In this document: one piece after another, positions 11,609-64,000 of the stretch
How positions within the stretch are numbered: the first letter of the stretch is position 1
Layout: every line of letters begins with the position of its first letter
DNA from: a virus
Reading direction: 5' to 3' (one strand)
Length of the DNA: 64,000 nt
IMG/VR virus record: IMGVR_UViG_3300045988_111187
Coordinates: 1-64,000 of that record
The notes under the pieces: model-generated
Told to the model about the DNA's origin: nothing
What the model saw: only the letters and a program-made list of their open reading frames with translations
Database searches by the model: none
Made by a program: the position numbers and the translations under genes

Positions 11609-12670
11609 ATGAACAATTCAATGGTCGCTCACTTATGGGCAAACGAAAAACAAGAATCAGCGCATGGTAGTAACTTCTATTTTGAAGGAGAAAGTATTTA
11701 CTCCTATGGAAGTCATTTTGAGGTTGGAAGAATCGTGCGGAACAAGCGTGGAGAAAAGGCGTATTTGATTAATGATGGATATTATTCTTCTACTACAAGC
11801 AAGCATCAATATTATATTCGTGAAGCAATACCAACTGGCTCAAAGGTATTCAGTGTTGGATATAATATGTCAAATACTGGTAATATGGCATTTGTCACCA
11901 GTGGGTTGGAATCCATTAAAGATGCTATTGAAAAATACAAGAAAGCCAGAACTGAATTGCCTTATCAGAATGTTTGGGGAGCGTTTAAAAATCTGATGGG
12001 TTATATTGAGTTCTTCGATATGGGGACTCCCAAGAGTCTTCTTAAAAAGAGCGCAAACGAATGGCTTGGAACCAACCATGAATTATCAAGGAAATCAGAT
12101 AAGATTAAACGTGAACATGCCCGTGAATTGAAACGTATTTTCCAGATATTGTTGAATCATCAAGCACTGGAAGTCATTGGGACCGTAAATGTGATTGTAG
12201 ATGAAGTTTGTGGTGAAGGAACATGGGCTAAATATACGATCAGATGCCAAAGATGGACAGAAGGTTGTGAAAAGAGAGAGGCTATAGTCCTTGAAAAGGC
12301 AAGAAAAGAGGAAGAGGCCCGTAACAAAACATTGGAAGAACGGATACAAATGTGGAAGTATGGCGAGATTTCCCAGTTAAGTTATTATTGTCGGTTTGAG
12401 AATGATCAGCCGAACGTATGGTTGCGTATTAAGAATGGAAAAATCGAAACCAGTAAGGGTATCAAAGTAGAACTAACTGAAGCTGAAAGACTTTGGAGAT
12501 TGATTAAGGTCTTCCATAATGGCGGTCAGTTCCAGCACGATTTGGCATTGGATGTAACCGGTCACAGATGGGCGTTCAATCGTTATGAAAACGATATGCT
12601 GACTGCTGGATGTCATCGTATTGCGTATAGCGAGATGGAAAGTATTGCAAAACAACTGGGATGGGCGTAA
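11609..12670 (+). CDS. hypothetical protein (353 aa)
   Basis: long ORF. Confidence 0.6.
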   Translation: MNNSMVAHLWANEKQESAHGSNFYFEGESIYSYGSHFEVGRIVRNKRGEKAYLINDGYYSSTTSKHQYYIREAIPTGSKVFSVGYNMSNTGNMAFVTSGLESIKDAIEKYKKARTELPYQNVWGAFKNLMGYIEFFDMGTPKSLLKKSANEWLGTNHELSRKSDKIKREHARELKRIFQILLNHQALEVIGTVNVIVDEVCGEGTWAKYTIRCQRWTEGCEKREAIVLEKARKEEEARNKTLEERIQMWKYGEISQLSYYCRFENDQPNVWLRIKNGKIETSKGIKVELTEAERLWRLIKVFHNGGQFQHDLALDVTGHRWAFNRYENDMLTAGCHRIAYSEMESIAKQLGWA

Positions 12671-54352: not shown

Positions 54353-54576
54353 AACCTGTCTCCTCCCAATCCCGAATTGATGCTAACGTACTTAACACGG
54401 ACATCGTTTCCACGTCCAAGCTGACCCCAGCCGGGCGATGGCGTTCCCTTTGCCGGAGCAGCGACAGCCCTAAGCCGAGGCCAGTCCTGATTTTGTCTTA
54501 TGGCCTCCGCCTCTTTGTAATATTGGTTACACAGCTCTTGATCTTCGTACCCAATGTAATCTTCTTTATTTTCCAT
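54349..54576 (-). CDS. hypothetical protein (75 aa) with a GC-rich core; could instead be the RNA tail of the tnpB element
   Basis: ATGA overlap with the next gene argues for coding; the GC-rich island directly 3' of tnpB argues for an RNA. Confidence 0.3.
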   Translation of the reverse strand: MENKEDYIGYEDQELCNQYYKEAEAIRQNQDWPRLRAVAAPAKGTPSPGWGQLGRGNDVRVKYVSINSGLGGDRL

Positions 54577-54611
54577 AGTTGGAAATTTTATAGTAAAACA
54601 TAATAATTACT

Positions 54612-55753
54612 ACTCCATTATAGACGCTTCATTGAGATTCGTAACCTCATTTCTCTGCATCCGATTATAGAGGATATCAACTCCTACCCTCTGTATGTTT
54701 ATTGCAGCATTCAAATCTCTATCTATTTCAATGCTGCAATTTTCACACTTGAAAACTCTATCTGATAAAGTTAAGTCTTCTTTCTTCCATCCGCATTTGG
54801 AACACGTCTTTGATGATGGAAAAGAACCTGTCTATTACGACAAGTTCTTTTCCATACCAATTACATTTGTATTCCAACATGCTTCTAAACATTGAGAAAC
54901 TTGTATCGGATATAGCTTTAGCCAATTTGTGATTCGATAACATTCCAGAAACATTTAAATCCTCTATGCAAATAACATCATAATTATTTACAAGTGAAGT
55001 GGTAACATTATGAAGAAAGTTGTTTCTCCTATTAGCAATCTTGTTATACAATCTTGCTATTTTTATTTTATTCTTTCTATGCCTGTTACTTCCTTTACTC
55101 TTTCTACTTAAATGTCTTTGTATTTTAGCTATTTCAGATTGTTTCTCTCTGAAAAACTTGATATTATCAATCACAATTCCGTCAGACAATGTAGCAAAAG
55201 ATTTCAATCCTAAATCTATACCAACCGTTTTACCAGTCTTTCCCTTGTGATGCATGACCGTATCTACGAGAATAGAAACAAAGTACTGATTGCAACAATT
55301 TTTAGATATCGTACATGACAGCATCTTTGAATTATTAGGTATATTCCTATCAATAGACATCTTAACCCATCCTATTTTCTCTAATCTTATCTTATTATCT
55401 TTTAATGAGAATTTTTGATTAGGTAATCTATAAGATTGGTTTCCAGATTTCTTTTTAAAAGAAGGTCTGCCTATTTTCTTCTTTCTTGTTTTAGAGAAAA
55501 ACTGGTTGGTAATTTCTTGAAAATCCCTTATCTTTTGTTGTATAGCAGCGGCAGAGATTTCATTCAACCACGGCTTGTCAATTATTAAATCAGATTTAAT
55601 AATGATTTTAGGTTTAGGATTACTATCCTTATCATAAGAATTGAAAAATTCGACATTAGCATTCCAAATTACACGAATACATCCAAAAGTCTTAGAAAGC
55701 AACCCCTTCTGAGACTTATTAGGATATATTCTGTATTTGAAAGCTTTATGCAT
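54612..55753 (-). pseudogene. tnpB: TnpB (IS200/IS605 OrfB) with a 1-nt frameshift before the zinc finger
   Basis: N-terminal FKYRIYPNKSQ; RuvC-I GIDLGLKSFA; RuvC-II ICIEDLNV; after a +1 shift at the run at 54830-54833 the frame reads [13 protein letters not shown] ... CENC ... [10 protein letters not shown] (zinc finger and RuvC-III) to a stop at 54612. Confidence 0.8.
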
Positions 55754-57986: not shown

Positions 57987-58009
57987 ATTAGCCTCCTCTC
58001 TTAATAAAA

Positions 58010-59074
58010 TCAGACAGCAGCGTTGTTATTGCAACATCCGTTGTTACATCCACATCCGTTATTGCAGCAACCTCCTCCGAATACCTGTCCCCAAGTATAG
58101 GACTGATAAGGAGAACAAGAGGGATAAGCAGGAACCGGACAAGGACGTAATTGACCAACGATATTCTGGGTCTGTTGCTGAGATAATGCCGAAGCTGTCA
58201 AAGCCGCTTTTTCTTCACGAAGTTGAGCAATAGTGTTCTGCATCTCCCTCATTTCCAACTGACAGAATTTGTCGTTGATCATAACGGTTTGAGCGTCAAG
58301 TTTCGCAGACAAGATATTGAATTGGCTTGTAGCTTGCTCACGATTGTTAGCCAGACCTTGGTTGAGACCGTTCTGCAAGATATTGGTTTGTTCCAACGTG
58401 CGAAGCTGGTTATCAAAACCTTGCTGAGTAATCATTCCCTGAGTCTGGCAAGTGCTTTGATTGATCAACGAACTCAGATTGCAGCAGCAAGAGCTGATTT
58501 GATTTCCGATTTCACAACCTTGTTGTTGAACTGCGTTGATAACAGCCTGAGAAGTCATACCTACCTGACCAGCTACTTTATCAATAGCACCCTGTACGTT
58601 GCAGATAGCGTTCTGAAGTTGAGTAGTAGAGCAGTTCAAAGCAGAAGCGATCTGATCTATAGCGCTACGATTACCTTGAATTGCCTGCATCAAAAGTTCA
58701 CGACCGTAATCGTTATTCAACTGAGCGGGTAAACCATTGGCGCAACAATCACCACCATTTCCAAAACCGTTACCGAAGCCGCGTCCACCCCACAGCCAGA
58801 ACAAAACAATTATCCAGAGCCACCAACCGTTAGCCCCACCGAAACCGTCCTGGTTGTTACGACCGTTCATCAAAGCCGCCACCAGATTCGGATCCATTTT
58901 ATTACCACCTATTAAATTAGCAAACATGCCGGGAATCATTGAAAGAAGACCGTTAGCGGCTGCACCACCACCGTTAGCCCCGGCTCCATCTAAAAGGACG
59001 ATTTTATCACCACCCATAATTTTATAGTATTTAATTGTTAAACATACGTGCATGAAGCACGTAACAAAGATCAT
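58010..59074 (-). CDS. Gly/Asn/Gln/Cys-rich membrane-anchored protein (up to 354 aa) with a C-terminal CCNNGCGCNNGCCNNN tail
   Basis: hydrophobic WWLWIIVLFWLW segment; Q-rich coiled-coil middle; the real start is probably an internal Met. Confidence 0.5.
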   Translation of the reverse strand: MIFVTCFMHVCLTIKYYKIMGGDKIVLLDGAGANGGGAAANGLLSMIPGMFANLIGGNKMDPNLVAALMNGRNNQDGFGGANGWWLWIIVLFWLWGGRGFGNGFGNGGDCCANGLPAQLNNDYGRELLMQAIQGNRSAIDQIASALNCSTTQLQNAICNVQGAIDKVAGQVGMTSQAVINAVQQQGCEIGNQISSCCCNLSSLINQSTCQTQGMITQQGFDNQLRTLEQTNILQNGLNQGLANNREQATSQFNILSAKLDAQTVMINDKFCQLEMREMQNTIAQLREEKAALTASALSQQQTQNIVGQLRPCPVPAYPSCSPYQSYTWGQVFGGGCCNNGCGCNNGCCNNNAAV

Positions 59075-59342
59075 GATTGCAGGGTGGAATACAGGTGTGT
59101 TTATTTCCTATAGAAGAGAAGTATTTTCAGCAAAAACGGAAGTATAATACACAATAATTAATTTTCCCCATTTAAGGTGAAAAACTGATAATCAGAAACT
59201 TACGCTTTTCCCATTTTGGGTAAAGCGCTGTAAATCAAACCAGGGCCCGCATCACTGCGAGCCCTGATCTCTAAACTAATACCATGAAAAAACTTAAATC
59301 TAAAAACTAAAGAATACACAAATGTATGAAAATGTACGCTTT

Positions 59343-59540
59343 TCACAAAGAATCTGTATCCTGTTCTTTTGTGTGATTCAAGACATGGGATATAGTTCTG
59401 ATACTTAATCCGGTTTGATTTCGTATCAGATTATAAATATAGGATTTTGAAACTACAGTTCTTAATTGACCTAAATCATTCATAATGTTTTTATACATAA
59501 GATGAATGCTGTTATTACGTTTGATGGTACTGATTCTCAT
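59343..59540 (-). CDS. small putative HTH DNA-binding protein (65 aa)
   Basis: TGLSIRTISHVLNH resembles a helix-turn-helix; lies in a 690-nt intergenic region. Confidence 0.3.
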   Translation of the reverse strand: MRISTIKRNNSIHLMYKNIMNDLGQLRTVVSKSYIYNLIRNQTGLSIRTISHVLNHTKEQDTDSL

Positions 59541-59764
59541 TTCCTACCGTTATTAGTTACGTTCTGTTCTTACCTTCCCTATTTTCTATAATCCCTTCCT
59601 GAAACTAATATTGCAAACTTAATAAAAATAATTCATAAACAACGAAAATCTAACTTTTCTTGTATGTTATTGATATACGTGCATATATAAGAAAAGTGAG
59701 ACTTTCACAAGCCTCACTTCCCAAATTATAACTATGAAAAAACTATATTATATATATACAAAAA

Positions 59765-62023
59765 TTATTTGCATTCTAATTTGTTAAGATCATCCAATTC
59801 AGACTTGCTTATGGTCATATCTTGCGTCAAGCCAGATCTGTTTTGGTATGGAGCGTAATCGGTTTCTACTGTCTTAGCCTTCTGGGTAGAATCGTATTTC
59901 ACCTCCGATTCGGTCCCTGTCAGATTTTGGTAGATAGAGCCGGAACTACTTTCGCTTACTTTAGACCATATCTTATTACCTACTCTTATAAAATTATCAT
60001 AAATACCTTCGGCTGTTATAACACCATCTTGCTCTACGATATTAGGGCCCGATTTTTCTTTTAACAGATACGGGTGCCTGGTGTAAAAATAGTGTTCAAA
60101 ATCATTCTCGGCATACGAAGGGTCATACCTATCCAAATAAAACAATTTTGATAAAAAAGGGTCGGTGCTGGTCATGCTATAATCAAACAACATCAACCTG
60201 TCTTTTCCAGATAAAGATAATTCTATTGATTTCAAAATATCAGGATCATCAGAAATAAGACCCAAAGATGGACCAGATTTGAAGTCAAGATACTTATAGG
60301 CATTATCATATAATTTTGTTTTATGGAGTTTGTTGTCAAGGTAATATTGGTATAAATCGAATAAGGATAATGGGTTTTCGCTATCTTGTTTTTTGTTCAT
60401 GTACCGACTAAATTCCCGATCCACATCCGCGTAAGAAACATCAAGTACCGCCGGGTGCCCAAACGCCATCCTGGTCATTATCATGTCCTCCGTGTTCTGA
60501 GGATCCATGAACGATCTGACGTATTTTTTAATGGAATCCATGAGCGTATTATCATCTACGTTCCGTACTTTCTCTTTATCCAAAACGCCGTTCTTAAAAC
60601 AAGATTCAGGATATATTTTAGCAGGAAAGTGAGTTAGGTTGTGCTTGGCTAACACTGTTGATATTTGATACATCTCGTTAAGATCATCTTTGCTGATCCT
60701 TTGATATAGATTATCTCCTACCTTAAGCAATGAGTGTTTCTCAAATGCTTCTACTGGGTCTATATTGGATTCAGAATAAACGATATTCAAATTATCCATA
60801 TACTCCGGTAATAATCCAAAATAATAATCTGTGCTATCACCAAGAACATCATCAATAGAAGATGCCAACGTAGGAGCATAATTTACATCATTGAGCCTGG
60901 CCACATAAATATCAAGATCCATCATCAAATTATCTATCTTATTCAAAGATTCTTCTGTGCCATCATAAGTTTCTGACGCCCCTATTATATCTATGCCAAA
61001 CCACGTACAAGCCTCTTCTATATCCCATATCATGCTTCTTAAATCGGATTCAGTGTCAGCGTTAGCCCTATGTAAATAAGCTGATATACGATCTCTTAGG
61101 AACTCTATTTTGCCGGGATTGTAATAAGACAGATCTTGTAGCTTAGACAAGGATCTTCTCTTGCCTTCTACCACATCATCCCCTTCTATGTTTATTACCG
61201 GAATCTTATTCGTAGATGAAAACTCATCAAACATAGATTCGGCAAATTTTTTATCAGAAATAAATTTCTCGACCAGCTCAGGATACAGGTTCCTCAACGA
61301 TTCAAAAGCAGATGAAAATTCAGAAAAGTTTTTTATGCCGCCTACTGTTTTGCACATAGCCCAATAAAGCTCAGAAGGATTATATGGTACTTTTTTACCA
61401 AATTGGTTAAACACTCCCTCCTTGTAAACAATAGGACCATACTGATAGTCAACAGACATAAAATAATTATCTTTTTCCCTATCATGTTCGTTATTGGAAT
61501 AATCCAATAACTTCCTCATGGATGTCGAAACTTCATTAAGAACAGAAGGATCAGATAAGATTCTACTTATCTCTGTTTCATTATACAAGCCTGATCTTCT
61601 TAAATTCTGCTCATTCAGTATCAAACTACCATCTACATAAAAATAATGAAGAATGATGTTGGATAATGATGGTGCCGTATAAACACCATAGGTAGATAAA
61701 AGAAAATCCCTTACATCCTTAACATCCTGAGCCGTTAGAGGATTGGCAAAATAAGTTTGACGCTTCATATACGACAGTACGTCTTCTAAAAGAGGTTCAC
61801 CATTGGAATCGGTATTAAACATCTCCCCTGGAGCCGGGTTATTCCAATGACCGTAATACGACAAAAAACCAGGAGTGTAAGCCTTAGCCCATACCTGAAG
61901 AGCCCGCTCACTGTTTCCTAATAATTTTAAGGCACTTTCGTAAAGAACGGAAGACTCCCCGTTAGGAGCCTCAACCCGTTCTATTTTATTTTCCTTCTTT
62001 TCTATCTGACATTTGACACCCAT
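59765..62023 (-). CDS. hypothetical protein (752 aa)
   Basis: long ORF. Confidence 0.65.
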   Translation of the reverse strand: MGVKCQIEKKENKIERVEAPNGESSVLYESALKLLGNSERALQVWAKAYTPGFLSYYGHWNNPAPGEMFNTDSNGEPLLEDVLSYMKRQTYFANPLTAQDVKDVRDFLLSTYGVYTAPSLSNIILHYFYVDGSLILNEQNLRRSGLYNETEISRILSDPSVLNEVSTSMRKLLDYSNNEHDREKDNYFMSVDYQYGPIVYKEGVFNQFGKKVPYNPSELYWAMCKTVGGIKNFSEFSSAFESLRNLYPELVEKFISDKKFAESMFDEFSSTNKIPVINIEGDDVVEGKRRSLSKLQDLSYYNPGKIEFLRDRISAYLHRANADTESDLRSMIWDIEEACTWFGIDIIGASETYDGTEESLNKIDNLMMDLDIYVARLNDVNYAPTLASSIDDVLGDSTDYYFGLLPEYMDNLNIVYSESNIDPVEAFEKHSLLKVGDNLYQRISKDDLNEMYQISTVLAKHNLTHFPAKIYPESCFKNGVLDKEKVRNVDDNTLMDSIKKYVRSFMDPQNTEDMIMTRMAFGHPAVLDVSYADVDREFSRYMNKKQDSENPLSLFDLYQYYLDNKLHKTKLYDNAYKYLDFKSGPSLGLISDDPDILKSIELSLSGKDRLMLFDYSMTSTDPFLSKLFYLDRYDPSYAENDFEHYFYTRHPYLLKEKSGPNIVEQDGVITAEGIYDNFIRVGNKIWSKVSESSSGSIYQNLTGTESEVKYDSTQKAKTVETDYAPYQNRSGLTQDMTISKSELDDLNKLECK

Positions 62024-62089
62024 GTTATGAAAAATATTAAATTCAATAAAATCTATTACATTTCTTTATAAGTTTCGGAATGTACCTTC

Positions 62090-63322
62090 TTAACAAAATA
62101 CATTCGTAATCCTTACCGGGTTAAACAATAACCCTCTATCGATTATCCTACGAATTGATTCACAAGAATCACCGACTACTTTTCTCATAATGTTTAATGC
62201 TCCATTTACATCGGCATTAATGAGCTTTCCTGTAGAGGATTGAAATAATCCTCGTTTTCTCCTTTTTCCTAAATAGTTTTCATGTTTTCCTATCTTCTCA
62301 AATGCAAGAGAATCACATTTTGAAGTATATGATTCTTCATTGATAACTATTTCAATACCAGCTAATTCACATTTGTATTCTAAGTAACTAACTAATCTCG
62401 CAAAAGGGATTTGGGTAAACTTTTGGTTATTCTTTTTACCTATATTTACATTTTGTTTCCATCCCTTGTTATAGCCTACAACTAATTTTGTTATCTTGGA
62501 ATCGATAAGTAAATCAACTATCTTTCTACTGATTTTATGAAAGACATCTTCTATGTACTGTTCTCTATCATAATATAATTTCTTTATTCGTTTCGTTATC
62601 CCTTTTATCTTTTGTAAATCTTTGATACTATTTAATTTAGCTAATGTCTTATTGAATAGCTTATTGTATGATTTAACAAATTTACCACTAAATAGAACAG
62701 TAAAATCCTCACTGATAAGAGTTGCAAGATTATCAATCCCTAAATCGATTGAAGCAACTTTCTCTTCCATACCTTTAGACACTTCAATATCTTTTACCTC
62801 ATAAATGATTTCTATTTTATATCCACATGATGATGGTTTTATTCTAATCTGTTTGAAATCTTTTATCAAATCAGAATACTTCTCATATTGAGGAATGGGT
62901 ATTGAAATATCTTTTGATAGGATTATTTTCCCATCTTTTATTTTGCAACTCTGGCTCGTGTAATACAAATTGAACTCAGAACCTCTCTTTTTGTAATTTG
63001 GAAGACCAGGTTTTTCCTTATACTTAGTTGGATGTTTTTTGTAATCTTGGACCGTTTTGTAATAACTTTTAATGTTTTTATCAATAATACGAAGAACTTG
63101 TTGAGAACATTGCGCTTTTAATAATTTGTAATTGATATTCCCATCCAAGTTCTTAGTATTCTTCATGATAGTATCAAGTTCAAAATAAGATAACCACTTA
63201 TCTTCTTTAGAAAGTGTTTCTCTGAAAATATATAACGCCTGATTGTACAAGTTATTGCTAATCTTGCACAAAGATGATATATTTTCATTCTGACCTATGT
63301 TGAACTTATATACTAATATCAT
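62090..63322 (-). CDS. divergent TnpB-like RuvC nuclease (410 aa) with a degenerate zinc finger
   Basis: RuvC-I ASIDLGIDNLATL; EESYTSKC; RuvC-III INADVNGALNIMRK; only one Cys where TnpB has CxxC ... CxxC. Confidence 0.65.
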   Translation of the reverse strand: MILVYKFNIGQNENISSLCKISNNLYNQALYIFRETLSKEDKWLSYFELDTIMKNTKNLDGNINYKLLKAQCSQQVLRIIDKNIKSYYKTVQDYKKHPTKYKEKPGLPNYKKRGSEFNLYYTSQSCKIKDGKIILSKDISIPIPQYEKYSDLIKDFKQIRIKPSSCGYKIEIIYEVKDIEVSKGMEEKVASIDLGIDNLATLISEDFTVLFSGKFVKSYNKLFNKTLAKLNSIKDLQKIKGITKRIKKLYYDREQYIEDVFHKISRKIVDLLIDSKITKLVVGYNKGWKQNVNIGKKNNQKFTQIPFARLVSYLEYKCELAGIEIVINEESYTSKCDSLAFEKIGKHENYLGKRRKRGLFQSSTGKLINADVNGALNIMRKVVGDSCESIRRIIDRGLLFNPVRITNVFC

Positions 63323-63454
63323 GATTTTTAATACATTAAATGCTGTTTACAAATCATACATCTAAGATACGAATTACATTTGTATTACAGAATAGAATCT
63401 ATTATTTTTAATGTTATTTTGCACCATAGTGATAAATATTTTAGGCAAAGTTAA

Positions 63455-63994
63455 TTATAAAACCGACTTATACAATGACGGATCCCAAACTCCTTCTATA
63501 TAAATCTCTGAAAAACTCAAACCACCATCACGAAGAGTAGTGACTTCCAAGCTGGGAATGTTGAAAACAGTGTAAACATCACCAAACTCACGGCTCAACT
63601 TAATAGCATTTCCGCTGTTATCAGCTTCATAATAACAATAACAATAATTTTCATTAATGCTTGGATCATATTCGTACCAATATGTTAGATCTTGTATATG
63701 GTCTTCTATATTACCAATTTTATTTTCACCTAATATAAAAATGCCACTATTGCTATGATGATAAACCATAGATTCATAACCACCATAATTCCAATTACTA
63801 TTAAACATTATGTAACTAACATCGGAATCATGATCTTTTAATACAGGTCCTATATGTATATGAATTTTATTAAACTGACATACATAAGGTCTTTTTCCTC
63901 CAAGCCTTTTTATATCTTCATTAGATAACTTATTATAACATCCTCCCACGAAATTATCCGTAGCATTAAAGAATCTCCTTCTCATACTCAACAC
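63455..63994 (-). CDS. hypothetical protein (179 aa), start near the window edge
   Basis: ORF. Confidence 0.45.
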   Translation of the reverse strand: MLSMRRRFFNATDNFVGGCYNKLSNEDIKRLGGKRPYVCQFNKIHIHIGPVLKDHDSDVSYIMFNSNWNYGGYESMVYHHSNSGIFILGENKIGNIEDHIQDLTYWYEYDPSINENYCYCYYEADNSGNAIKLSREFGDVYTVFNIPSLEVTTLRDGGLSFSEIYIEGVWDPSLYKSVL

Positions 63995-64000
63995 TCTTTG

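Follow-up and report, generated by a model that had tools for sequence, protein, structure and literature searches.

A probable tnpA-less IS607-family element with a RuvC-II-rearranged TnpB, inserted at a start codon in a crAss-like gut phage

The locus is situated on the minus strand of a 64-kb stretch of viral DNA (the window) and consists of an intact tnpB gene, the two ends of the element that carries it, and an adjoining phage gene of 752 codons. The following features were assigned:

63428..63454, minus strand: spacer that originally separated the two genes, lying upstream of the insertion; plus-strand sequence AGTGATAAATATTTTAGGCAAAGTTAA; aligns with the crAssE-Sib spacer
62024..63427, minus strand: complete element, left end (LE) - tnpB - right end (RE), 1404 bp; probable tnpA-less member of the IS607 family, from empty-site comparison and blastn with the element
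63323..63427, minus strand: LE, 105 nt; begins ATGGTGCAAAATAACATTAAAAATAAT
62090..63322, minus strand: tnpB, 410 aa; intact, full-length open reading frame
62024..62190, minus strand: predicted omegaRNA/reRNA scaffold; last ~100 nt of tnpB plus RE; several hairpins, one of them across the stop codon
62024..62089, minus strand: RE, 66 nt; finishes ...AATTTAATATTTTTCATAAC; AT is next in every copy
62002..62023, minus strand: predicted guide template plus AT core, ATGGGTGTCAAATGTCAGATAG; assigned as in IS607 TnpB (PMC10711439); equals nt 1-22 of the 752-aa coding sequence
59765..62023, minus strand: 752-aa phage gene of unknown function; its ATG (62021-62023) is the insertion point; intact

The borders of the element were evident from a comparison with uninterrupted alleles. 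The preliminary description had named clear insertion sequence ends, together with an empty site in relatives, as the observation that would speak against its own regulatory interpretation, and both were found. An exact empty site was present in crAssE-Sib (L001, '...gacacccat|agtgataaatatttt'), 60 viral contigs contained the exact 22-mer of the empty junction, and 33 contained a variant of the flank. At least 9 of the 60 contigs with the empty junction contained the element at another position. The DNA of the 752-aa gene is 92.7% identical to its crAssE-Sib counterpart, and the GC content is 0.28 in 62024..63427 versus 0.37 across the remaining window. The edge of the element is ambiguous by the nucleotides that are common to both sides (CCAT/ATGG). 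The nuclease gene had been described as abutting the 752-aa gene with its 3' end. This is true of the element, the end of which (62024) lies directly at the ATG, but not of the tnpB coding region, because its stop codon (62090-62092) is followed by 66 nt of element (62024-62089) before the ATG is reached.

When the element was used as a blastn query against 76 viral loci, the same ends were recovered with differing flanks. About 20 distinct flank pairs, i.e. insertion sites, were obtained, and in all 20 the conserved ends were identical and AT was present at both junctions. In the window, this crossover dinucleotide lies at 62022-62023, with a second copy at 63426-63427. The start of the left end and the right flank overlapped by 2-4 nt, and no further target-site duplication was seen at the ~20 sites. 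The first ~30 nt of LE resemble the LE of full-length relatives that contain both tnpA and tnpB, and the family consensus of LE is AT(G/A)(G/A)TG(C/T)AAAATAA(C/T)AT. At 9 of the 20 sites, the element was inserted exactly on a start codon. The genes adjoining it differed among the sites, and a conserved partner gene was not found. Thus, the position next to the 752-aa gene is in keeping with how the family inserts, namely on start codons, and the claim that the arrangement is that of a regulator placed next to the gene it controls is not supported. The viral scan seeded with the 55%-identity relative P0122, which yielded full-length relatives of 33-38% identity and two short partial matches of 63%, was left out of the end analysis.

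A tnpA gene was absent from the whole 64-kb window, and therefore the copy at 62024..63427 would not be able to move alone. However, in five related loci (L033, L041, L047, L055, and L056) a gene for an IS607 transposase (NF033518, 174 bits, cut-off 110) was found directly upstream of tnpB and overlapping with it. Every full-length relative that was found encoded a serine recombinase scoring as an IS607 equivalog, and none of them had a Y1 TnpA. Taken together, the region 62024..63427 is very probably a tnpA-less, tnpB-only, non-autonomous derivative of an IS607-family insertion sequence of epsilon crAss-like gut phages. In common with the IS607 family (e.g. ISXfa1, PMC10711439), it has conserved ends, relatives in which tnpA (NF033518) overlaps tnpB, one dinucleotide shared by both junctions without target duplication, and an RNA, predicted in our case, at the 3' end of tnpB and RE with a guide derived from the flank. 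In contrast to that family, the core is AT and not the GG described for ISXfa1, the present copy lacks tnpA, the lineage was found in phage contigs only, and the bias towards start codons is strong. Among 185,579 species genomes of bacteria and archaea, a scan whose sensitivity is limited by peptide-pattern seeding gave no relative of more than 45% identity; the relatives that it did recover had at most 43% identity (Asgard archaea, Methanothermococcus, Clostridia), and no copy on a host chromosome emerged. Therefore, the lineage appears to be phage-resident. Epsilon crAss-like gut phages are thus shown to harbor an active and apparently phage-restricted IS607/TnpB lineage, for which both filled and empty alleles are clearly recognisable.

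The assignment of the 410-aa protein to the TnpB family is based on profile searches and on structure prediction. It matched the NCBIfam model guided_TnpB (NF040570) over residues 10-381 with 162.7 bits (cut-off 100; E-value 1.6e-47), and the Pfam models OrfB_IS605 (PF01385) with 73.2 bits (cut-off 30.5) and Cas12f1-like_TNB (PF07282) with 48.8 bits (cut-off 26.3). The AF2 model (pLDDT 93.4, pTM 0.88) has the TnpB/Cas12f fold with the domains WED-REC-RuvC. The best Foldseek matches to this model were AsCas12f, ISFba1 TnpB, and ISDra2 TnpB, each with a probability of 1.00; Fanzor2 was also matched, and the TM score with ISDra2 TnpB was 0.71 when normalised to the target. With ISDra2 TnpB (PDB 8H1J/8EXA) and Cas12f the protein shares the overall fold (Foldseek E-values 1e-14 to 4e-17), the size of about 410 aa, and the domain order. 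It differs from them in that the identity is only 15-17% and in that they possess a zinc finger and the canonical D-E-D triad, the Glu of which is on beta-4; ISDra2 is, in addition, associated with a Y1 transposase.

All motifs that had been quoted for the protein are present in the 410-aa reading frame, and RuvC-I and RuvC-III are kept. The RuvC-I motif SIDLGIDNLATL contains D193 (62744-62746), and the RuvC-III motif INADVNGALNI contains D371 (62210-62212). In agreement with the preliminary description, VVGYNKGWKQN, with G283 at 62474-62476, has no acidic residue, glutamates are located beside the YTSK motif (INEESYTSKC; E329/E330 at 62333-62338, E330 at 62333-62335), and C336 (62315-62317) is the one Cys between YTSK and INAD. 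In a profile alignment to AsCas12f, G283 is placed on the RuvC-II Glu and E329/E330 just before YTSQ of AsCas12f. A single-sequence phmmer search against the PDB gave weak partial matches only, and the RuvC-II position could be aligned only with a family profile. Thus, D193 and D371 are present, but the canonical RuvC D-E-D with the 'IEDL' Glu on beta-4 is not. E329 and E330 are 46-47 residues away from G283, they follow directly after a strand predicted for residues 324-328 in the AF2 model, and they precede C336 by 7 and 6 residues, respectively.

Conservation was counted in 59 relatives with 35-55% identity. D193, G283, and D371 were invariant in all 59, and E330 was present in 58. A CxxC..CxxC zinc finger was found in none of the 59, nor did any of them have a second Cys pair; C336 was present in 38. 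The RuvC-I motif reads D193-L194-G195, and position 194 is L, I, F, M, or T over the clade, but never P, so that the motif is DLG and not the DPG of the Fanzor-like subclade. The clade with these unusual residues comprised 1198 cluster representatives at an E-value of 1e-30 or lower. Judged from the alignments, the odd active site is a clade-wide trait of the published RuvC-II-rearranged (RIIr; Altae-Tran et al. 2023, PMC10691335) or Ealt type (TnpBs and Fanzors; Yoon et al. 2023, PMC10711439), in which E330 would serve as the alternative Glu, as had been suggested when a variant with a relocated catalytic glutamate was proposed. The common features are the Gly in place of the canonical Glu, a conserved alternative Glu after beta-5, ~45 residues downstream of the canonical position, that is 6-7 residues before the first zinc-finger Cys position, and a RuvC-III of the NADxN type. 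In contrast, the definition of Ealt (PMC10711439) includes CxxC..CxxC, but this clade as a whole lacks the C4 zinc finger. The protein is a compact, zinc-finger-less, putative alternative-Glu TnpB, and the many natural target flanks of the element allow a TAM to be read.

The 3' region of tnpB has the properties expected of a structured RNA. The minimum free energy of the scaffold region has a z-score of -3.75. The synonymous divergence drops from about 0.35 to 0.086 in the last 35 codons of tnpB (codons 376-410). Among close copies, 4 pairs showed compensatory changes, a count that was reached in 51 of 500 shuffles; when relatives with 60-69% identity were added, compensatory changes were observed in 10 of 37 pairs of the 3' RNA. 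A long-range helix closing the whole 3' region in the RNAalifold output was removed as probably spurious before the pairs were counted. The low synonymous divergence together with the compensatory changes suggests that the RNA is under selection. An Rfam search of 58000-64000 at a permissive E-value gave chance-level miRNA and snoRNA matches only, and nothing at the 3' end of tnpB. The possibility of an IStron or a group I intron was rejected; the element lies between genes and not within one, and no intron RNA family was matched (Rfam).

The predicted guide template (62002..62023) is unique in the window. A match between the guide-proximal sequence and the 5' region of the 752-aa gene, for which a check had been proposed, is present; it follows from the fact that the guide of a TnpB is always transcribed from the DNA flanking RE. 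TAM and guide length can be proposed from the flanks. The spacer 63428..63454 finishes with ...TATCACT on the strand of the element, and this is likely the TAM side of the target. The base before the AT core was T in 17 of the 20 target flanks and C in every aligned RE, which would fit a discrimination between self and target that is based on the TAM.

These data are compatible with the following history. A serine-recombinase TnpA would have mobilised an ancestral copy, which then recombined at an AT that happened to be that of the ATG of the 752-aa gene. The start codon would have been remade at RE, so that the gene was kept intact and the A/T-rich RE may now serve as its leader. The element would encode a TnpB of the RuvC-II-rearranged type, with Gly instead of the canonical beta-4 Glu, Glu330 after beta-5, and the clade-wide loss of the zinc finger, and this TnpB would bind a structured RNA formed by the 3' end of tnpB and RE, with a guide taken from the initial ~20 nt of the 752-aa gene. 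Cleavage by the complex would be directed at the empty allele (ATGGGTGTCAAATG... preceded by a T-rich TAM), which could be present in a genome from which the element has been lost or in a co-infecting phage that never contained it, and recombinational repair would copy the element into the cut allele, resulting in homing or retention. The occupied site would be spared because RE (...AAC) replaces the TAM. Nuclease activity and homing are inferred here from sequence comparisons. In this respect, the element resembles the free-standing homing endonuclease genes of T4-like phages (intronless homing, PMC13565253), which are also selfish nuclease genes located between conserved phage genes, polymorphic, and expected to spread via cleavage of empty alleles during co-infection. 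Unlike these, its recognition would be RNA-guided and reset at each insertion, and its ends are of the recombinase type. The filled and empty alleles offer a natural system in which RNA-guided homing between co-infecting phages can be studied.

The preliminary description had considered a nuclease-attenuated, TldR-like protein, i.e. a domesticated, nuclease-dead RNA-guided DNA binder that the phage would keep as a repressor or modulator of the 752-aa gene beside it. TldRs (bioRxiv 10.1101/2023.11.30.569447) are also phage-borne TnpB homologues beside another gene, and several features point in this direction, namely the missing canonical RuvC-II Glu and zinc finger, the location of tnpB immediately upstream of the co-oriented 752-aa gene with no terminator-like site in between, and the nearest single-sequence PDB match of the C-terminal half, which was a weak one (E-value 0.02-0.03) to a nuclease-dead Cas12f. 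The terminator result stems from a scan for sigma-70 promoters and terminators, the sites of which were no commoner than in shuffled sequences and the models of which do not include Bacteroidota-type promoters. However, TldRs lack catalytic residues or the C-terminus, are immobile, and target the promoters of specific genes. Here, the protein is full length, D193, E330, and D371 are conserved over the clade, the ends are conserved and the same element is found beside ~20 unrelated genes, exact empty sites exist in crAssE-Sib and in the 60 viral contigs, an IS607 transposase is encoded in relatives, and in most relatives of this phage the 752-aa gene is not accompanied by the element, the presence of which is polymorphic. 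In addition, the guide equals the flank by construction, and it is sense relative to the mRNA. We therefore give almost no credence to a TldR-like function, and a tempting false lead is removed: the dead-looking TnpB beside a gene most probably belongs to a mobile element of an ordinary kind, and its alternative active site is a known one. A cis effect on the neighbor could also be imagined within the IS607 framework, namely that a phage-restricted lineage has adapted to start-codon insertion and that, besides homing, the TnpB-RNA complex at the AUG modulates translation of the adjacent gene. The AT core is usually followed by G, like the ATG-R of the element's own LE, and an A/T-rich RE could replace a leader without killing the gene; because the guide starts at the AUG of the downstream gene, a complex forming on read-through transcripts could occlude the start codon. 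We regard this combined proposal as rather unlikely, but the start-codon bias itself would add a new detail to the target choice of IS607 elements, provided that it reflects a genuine preference.

It could also be argued that the element is an inert relic, an immobile and decaying remnant that has lost TnpB catalysis and persists by hitch-hiking only. The absence of the canonical Glu and of the zinc finger, the absence of tnpA from the window, the deleted left ends of some related copies, and the decay of another TnpB gene in this genome would all agree with this. In contrast, the tnpB reading frame (62090..63322) is intact and shares 99-100% identity with the copies on other contigs, the two ends are undamaged and do not differ from the ends of copies at other sites, and the overall pN/pS of tnpB is 0.16, revealing purifying selection. 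Moreover, the unusual residues are invariant over the clade, and the 3' RNA shows synonymous-site constraint and compensatory changes. A relic is thus quite improbable. The names given to the protein by Pfam and JGI ('IS605 OrfB'), and the frequency of tnpB-only, IS1341-like elements (PMC10691335), could suggest an element of the IS200/IS605 type, which would have been moved by a Y1 transposase via single-strand 'peel-and-paste' transposition. Yet the recombinases of the full-length relatives argue for IS607, and one relative (P0109) is fused to a Resolvase domain. Furthermore, in an IS605-type element a target motif would be expected at the left end alone, but AT was found on both junctions at all sites, as is expected for a serine-recombinase crossover (PMC10711439). 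We consider an IS605-type origin to be very improbable.

Lastly, two observations concern decay. The left ends of the copies in L032, L040, and L071 are truncated, indicating that decay also happens in this family. A second TnpB gene within the same window is frameshifted.

The 410-aa protein matched the RNA-guided TnpB family NF040570 with 162.7 bits, far over the curated cut-off; PF01385 and PF07282 were also matched well over their curated cut-offs, and PHROG 506 ('transposase') was a further match. The ORF, the element that contains it, and the adjoining phage gene lie as follows:

62090..63322, minus strand: tnpB, ORF of 410 aa
62024..63427, minus strand: element of 1404 bp, consisting of left end, tnpB and right end
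59765..62023, minus strand: 752-aa gene, with its ATG at 62021-62023

Every motif quoted in the preliminary description was found when the coordinates were checked: the RuvC-I motif SIDLGIDNLATL, which carries D193; VVGYNKGWKQN, which lacks an acidic residue and includes G283; INEESYTSKC, which holds E329, E330 and C336; and INADVNGALNI, which holds D371. The zinc finger is degenerate as stated there, with a single Cys at the usual place of the CxxC...CxxC finger, so that the description of the protein is accurate.

At E<=0.001, a full-library search yielded 5258 cluster representatives, of which 1198 had E<=1e-30. Residues were counted in an alignment of the query with 58 full-length representatives of 35-55% identity.

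Conservation of active-site and zinc-finger positions (n=59)
D193, RuvC-I Asp: 59/59
G283, canonical RuvC-II Glu position: 59/59
E330, alternative Glu: 58/59
E329, neighbouring Glu: 45/59
T333 and S334, YTSK motif: invariant
D371, RuvC-III Asp: 59/59
C336, first zinc-finger Cys position: 38/59

None of the 59 aligned TnpBs contained two Cys pairs. In a profile alignment, the RuvC-II Glu of AsCas12f ('MEDL') fell on G283 and its 'PQYTSQ' on EESYTSK. An AlphaFold2 model generated from the TnpB alignment was confident (pLDDT 93.4, pTM 0.88) and contained strands at 189-194, 279-283 and 324-328, the last being the fifth strand, so that E329 and E330 come directly after it. The top structural matches of the model were Cas12f, the TnpBs of ISFba1 and ISDra2, and the Fanzor2 of mimivirus. 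E330 is expected to lie near both Asp residues in three dimensions. The aligned sequences show the unusual residues to be conserved across the family and not a sign of decay.

Large TnpB clades with Gly in place of the RuvC-II Glu have been described by Altae-Tran et al. (PMC10691335), with the prediction that the RuvC site is completed by an alternative Glu of the beta-5 region; the zinc finger is gone from some large branches, and certain rearranged branches are virus-specific. The active-site arrangement of the 410-aa TnpB matches these rearranged TnpBs. Yoon et al. (PMC10711439) defined 'Ealt' as a Glu about six residues ahead of the first finger Cys, and E330 and E329 are located 6 and 7 residues before C336. 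RuvC-I reads DLG here, not DPG as in the Fanzor-like subclade. The proposal of a relocated glutamate was thus right, with G283 and E330 conserved, and the arrangement belongs to an already described class.

A megablast search against phage records returned one relative, phage crAssE-Sib (OR575929), which was 92.7% identical across window positions 59000-62038, the match ending at the start of the 752-aa gene. In crAssE-Sib, tnpB is absent, and a short spacer and then another gene lie directly ahead of the 752-aa homologue. The uninterrupted junction of crAssE-Sib reads ...GACACCCAT|AGTGATAAATATTTTGG..., whereas the left and right junctions in the window read ...GACACCCAT(62023)|GTTATGAAAAATATT... 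and ...TTTTGCACCAT(63427)|AGTGATAAATATTTTAGG..., respectively. This comparison identifies 62024-63427 (1404 bp) as an insert, with a boundary that is ambiguous only by the nucleotides CCAT/ATGG. Its GC content is 0.28, compared with 0.37 for the rest of the window. The exact 22-mer of the empty junction was present in 60 viral contigs, and a variant differing in its upstream flank in 33 more; by comparison of contig names, at least 9 of these empty-site contigs have the element elsewhere in the same genome.

Scanning of viral contigs revealed 76 loci with TnpBs that were 79-100% identical, nearly all on contigs of 80-160 kb. When the window element was aligned to them, identical ends recurred in many differing flanks. 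The left-end consensus is AT(G/A)(G/A)TG(C/T)AAAATAA(C/T)AT...; the right end reads ...AATTTAATATTTTTCATAAC, and AT comes next. The count of different flank pairs was about 20. Each of them has AT at both junctions, and the left-end start overlaps the right flank by 2-4 nt. At five loci (L033, L041, L047, L055 and L056), an ORF of 201-206 aa lies directly upstream of tnpB with a 17-nt overlap. It encodes a serine recombinase (PF00239) and scored 174 bits against the IS607-family transposase equivalog NF033518 (cut-off 110); the database homologue P0109 carries an annotated fused Resolvase domain. The left ends of these full-length copies begin with sequence resembling that of the short element. 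Transposition by the IS607 serine recombinase yields a dinucleotide common to both junctions (PMC10711439), as was observed here, but the core is GG in IS607 and AT in the phage element. No tnpA was found anywhere in the 64-kb window, so the window copy is a non-autonomous derivative with tnpB only, that is, a TnpB element of the IS607 family that lacks tnpA and whose insertion site is a start codon.

At three loci (L032, L040 and L071, at about 2900-2930), the left end lacks its first 16-26 nt, and AGATTC, from inside the left end, directly follows the upstream flank ...GTTGAAAATAAT. A deletion between AAAATAAT repeats appears to be responsible and would immobilise the element. At L009 (about 4299), the right-end tip is duplicated over 12 nt (ATTTTTCATAAC) between the right end and its ATGGGTGTC target.

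The preliminary description had also suggested a TldR-like regulator placed just upstream of the gene that it controls. However, this reading failed on every defining feature tested, and abutment is not specific to the 752-aa gene. The empty site was reconstructed for 20 distinct insertions. At 9 sites, the ATG at the junction is the earliest one past an in-frame stop of a co-oriented ORF (58 to >300 codons), and in 6 further cases a gene starts 3-37 nt downstream of the junction; the co-oriented upstream gene mostly ends 1-75 nt ahead of it. As a rough null, AT dinucleotides were counted in the non-overlapping intergenic spacers, including start codons, of the annotated crAssE-Sib locus, and 14 of 148 (9.5%) belonged to start codons. 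The excess at start codons (9/20, P ~4e-5) is indicative only, as the sites are not fully independent. G followed the AT core in 13 of the 20 targets, compared with 26% of gene-strand ATN triplets (P ~3e-4, likewise indicative only), and the element's own left end starts with ATG or ATA. No terminator-like site was found between the element and the downstream 752-aa gene. We infer that the recombinase favours AT when a G follows and the surroundings are A/T-rich, and that in a gene-dense phage selection would retain only insertions that spare both neighbours. An element that lands on a start-codon AT would restore the ATG at its right end, so that the downstream gene would retain an A/T-rich leader.

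The base just before the AT core was T in 17 of the 20 target flanks, whereas at right ends it was C in all aligned copies, including relatives of 60-69% identity (AAC, GGC, AAC). This difference fits discrimination through a TAM covering the base before the core, by which the empty site would be cleavable and the occupied site protected, and it also fits IS607, in which fixed flanking nucleotides belong to the scaffold/TAM and not to the guide (PMC10711439). Most likely, the function would be to cut the empty allele under RNA guidance, with retention or homing of the element as the outcome (for a review, see PMC13565253).

The element is under selection, as pN/pS of tnpB was 0.16 among 29 distinct 410-codon alleles. 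Synonymous divergence was 0.34-0.44 in codons 1-250, 0.20-0.26 in codons 251-375 and only 0.086 in codons 376-410, a drop that is expected if a functional RNA is also encoded by the gene's 3' end. The fold of the 267 nt ending at the right end beat 200/200 shuffles (z = -3.75). For 31 close copies, RNAalifold predicted local hairpins in which four pairs were compensatory; their covariation scored above 500/500 shuffles and all slid controls, but the pair count was equalled in 51/500 shuffles, so that close-copy covariation alone is weak. After addition of three relatives of 60-69% protein identity (L091-L093), both-sided changes were seen in 10/37 pairs, including a GGGUU/AACCC hairpin and a hairpin spanning the stop codon, which occupy the same positions with different sequences across the relatives. 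No Rfam family matched the 3' RNA. Altogether, the evidence for a predicted omegaRNA/reRNA scaffold at about 62024-62190 is good but not conclusive. The guide would be read from the flank starting at the ATG of the 752-aa gene, and its predicted template ATGGGTGTCAAATGTCAGATAG occurs once in the window.

The window is part of an epsilon crAss-like phage. Two dissimilar TnpB-family genes have been reported in crAssE-Sib; some but not all members of the proposed genus Epsilonunovirus have them (PMC11054128). TnpBs 32-43% identical to the 410-aa protein occur in Bacteroides, Prevotella (Lak), Staphylococcus, Bacillus G, Helicobacter and Nodularia phages. In 185,579 prokaryotes (one genome per species), the best matches were 33-43% identical (Asgard archaea, Methanothermococcus, Clostridia), leaving aside one 30-residue fragment. 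By this search, which was pattern-seeded and not exhaustive, the close lineage appears to reside in phages. Only the start-codon bias and the phage-restricted, polymorphic distribution go beyond the literature found.

Several further features of these loci were observed. Because the insertion sits on a start codon, a short ORF (63376-63427, minus strand) running from the left end's own ATG (MVQNNIKNNRFYSVIQM, then a stop) lies behind the displaced original leader, which drives it. In other copies, a stop follows after 1-9 codons; early termination is thus conserved, the peptide not. GC skew stays strongly positive as far as about 42 kb and turns negative beyond, which indicates two divergently transcribed gene blocks, and the element and the 752-aa gene are located in the minus-strand block. 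A second, unrelated TnpB gene of canonical type (54400-55753, minus strand; GIDLGLKSF, VICIEDLNVSGM) is 27% identical to the 410-aa TnpB. Its ORF (54758..55753) stops after 'VVIDRFF', and the zinc finger (CSKCG...CENC) and RuvC-III run on just downstream in another frame. There is thus one frameshift, within a T-run (CTTTTCC); either the gene is a pseudogene or the homopolymer was misread during sequencing.

The gene upstream of the element (63455-63994, minus strand, 179 aa) is not homologous to its crAssE-Sib counterpart (12077-12655, 192 aa), the two sharing only an MRRR N-terminus and the leader; a mosaic boundary therefore lies right beside the insertion site. In some related phages, at L114 (2100-2800, corresponding to window positions of about 62000-63460) and also at L118, L126, L130, L134 and L144, two alternative small genes, of the window-like 179-aa type and the crAssE-Sib-like 195-aa type, stand in tandem upstream of the 752-aa gene, with a 28-nt duplicate of its 5' end (ATGGGTGTCAAATGTCAGATAGAAAAAA) between them. 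The spot is a cassette-exchange hotspot whose boundary coincides with the predicted TnpB target. At L042 (25-2064), a large ORF adjoining an element copy apparently encodes a replication protein with an HNH-like segment (CKICKK...HHVDGNRRNN...CASCHKKIH) inside it. The segment may represent an intein or a homing endonuclease that has inserted there, and would then be another selfish element in these phages.
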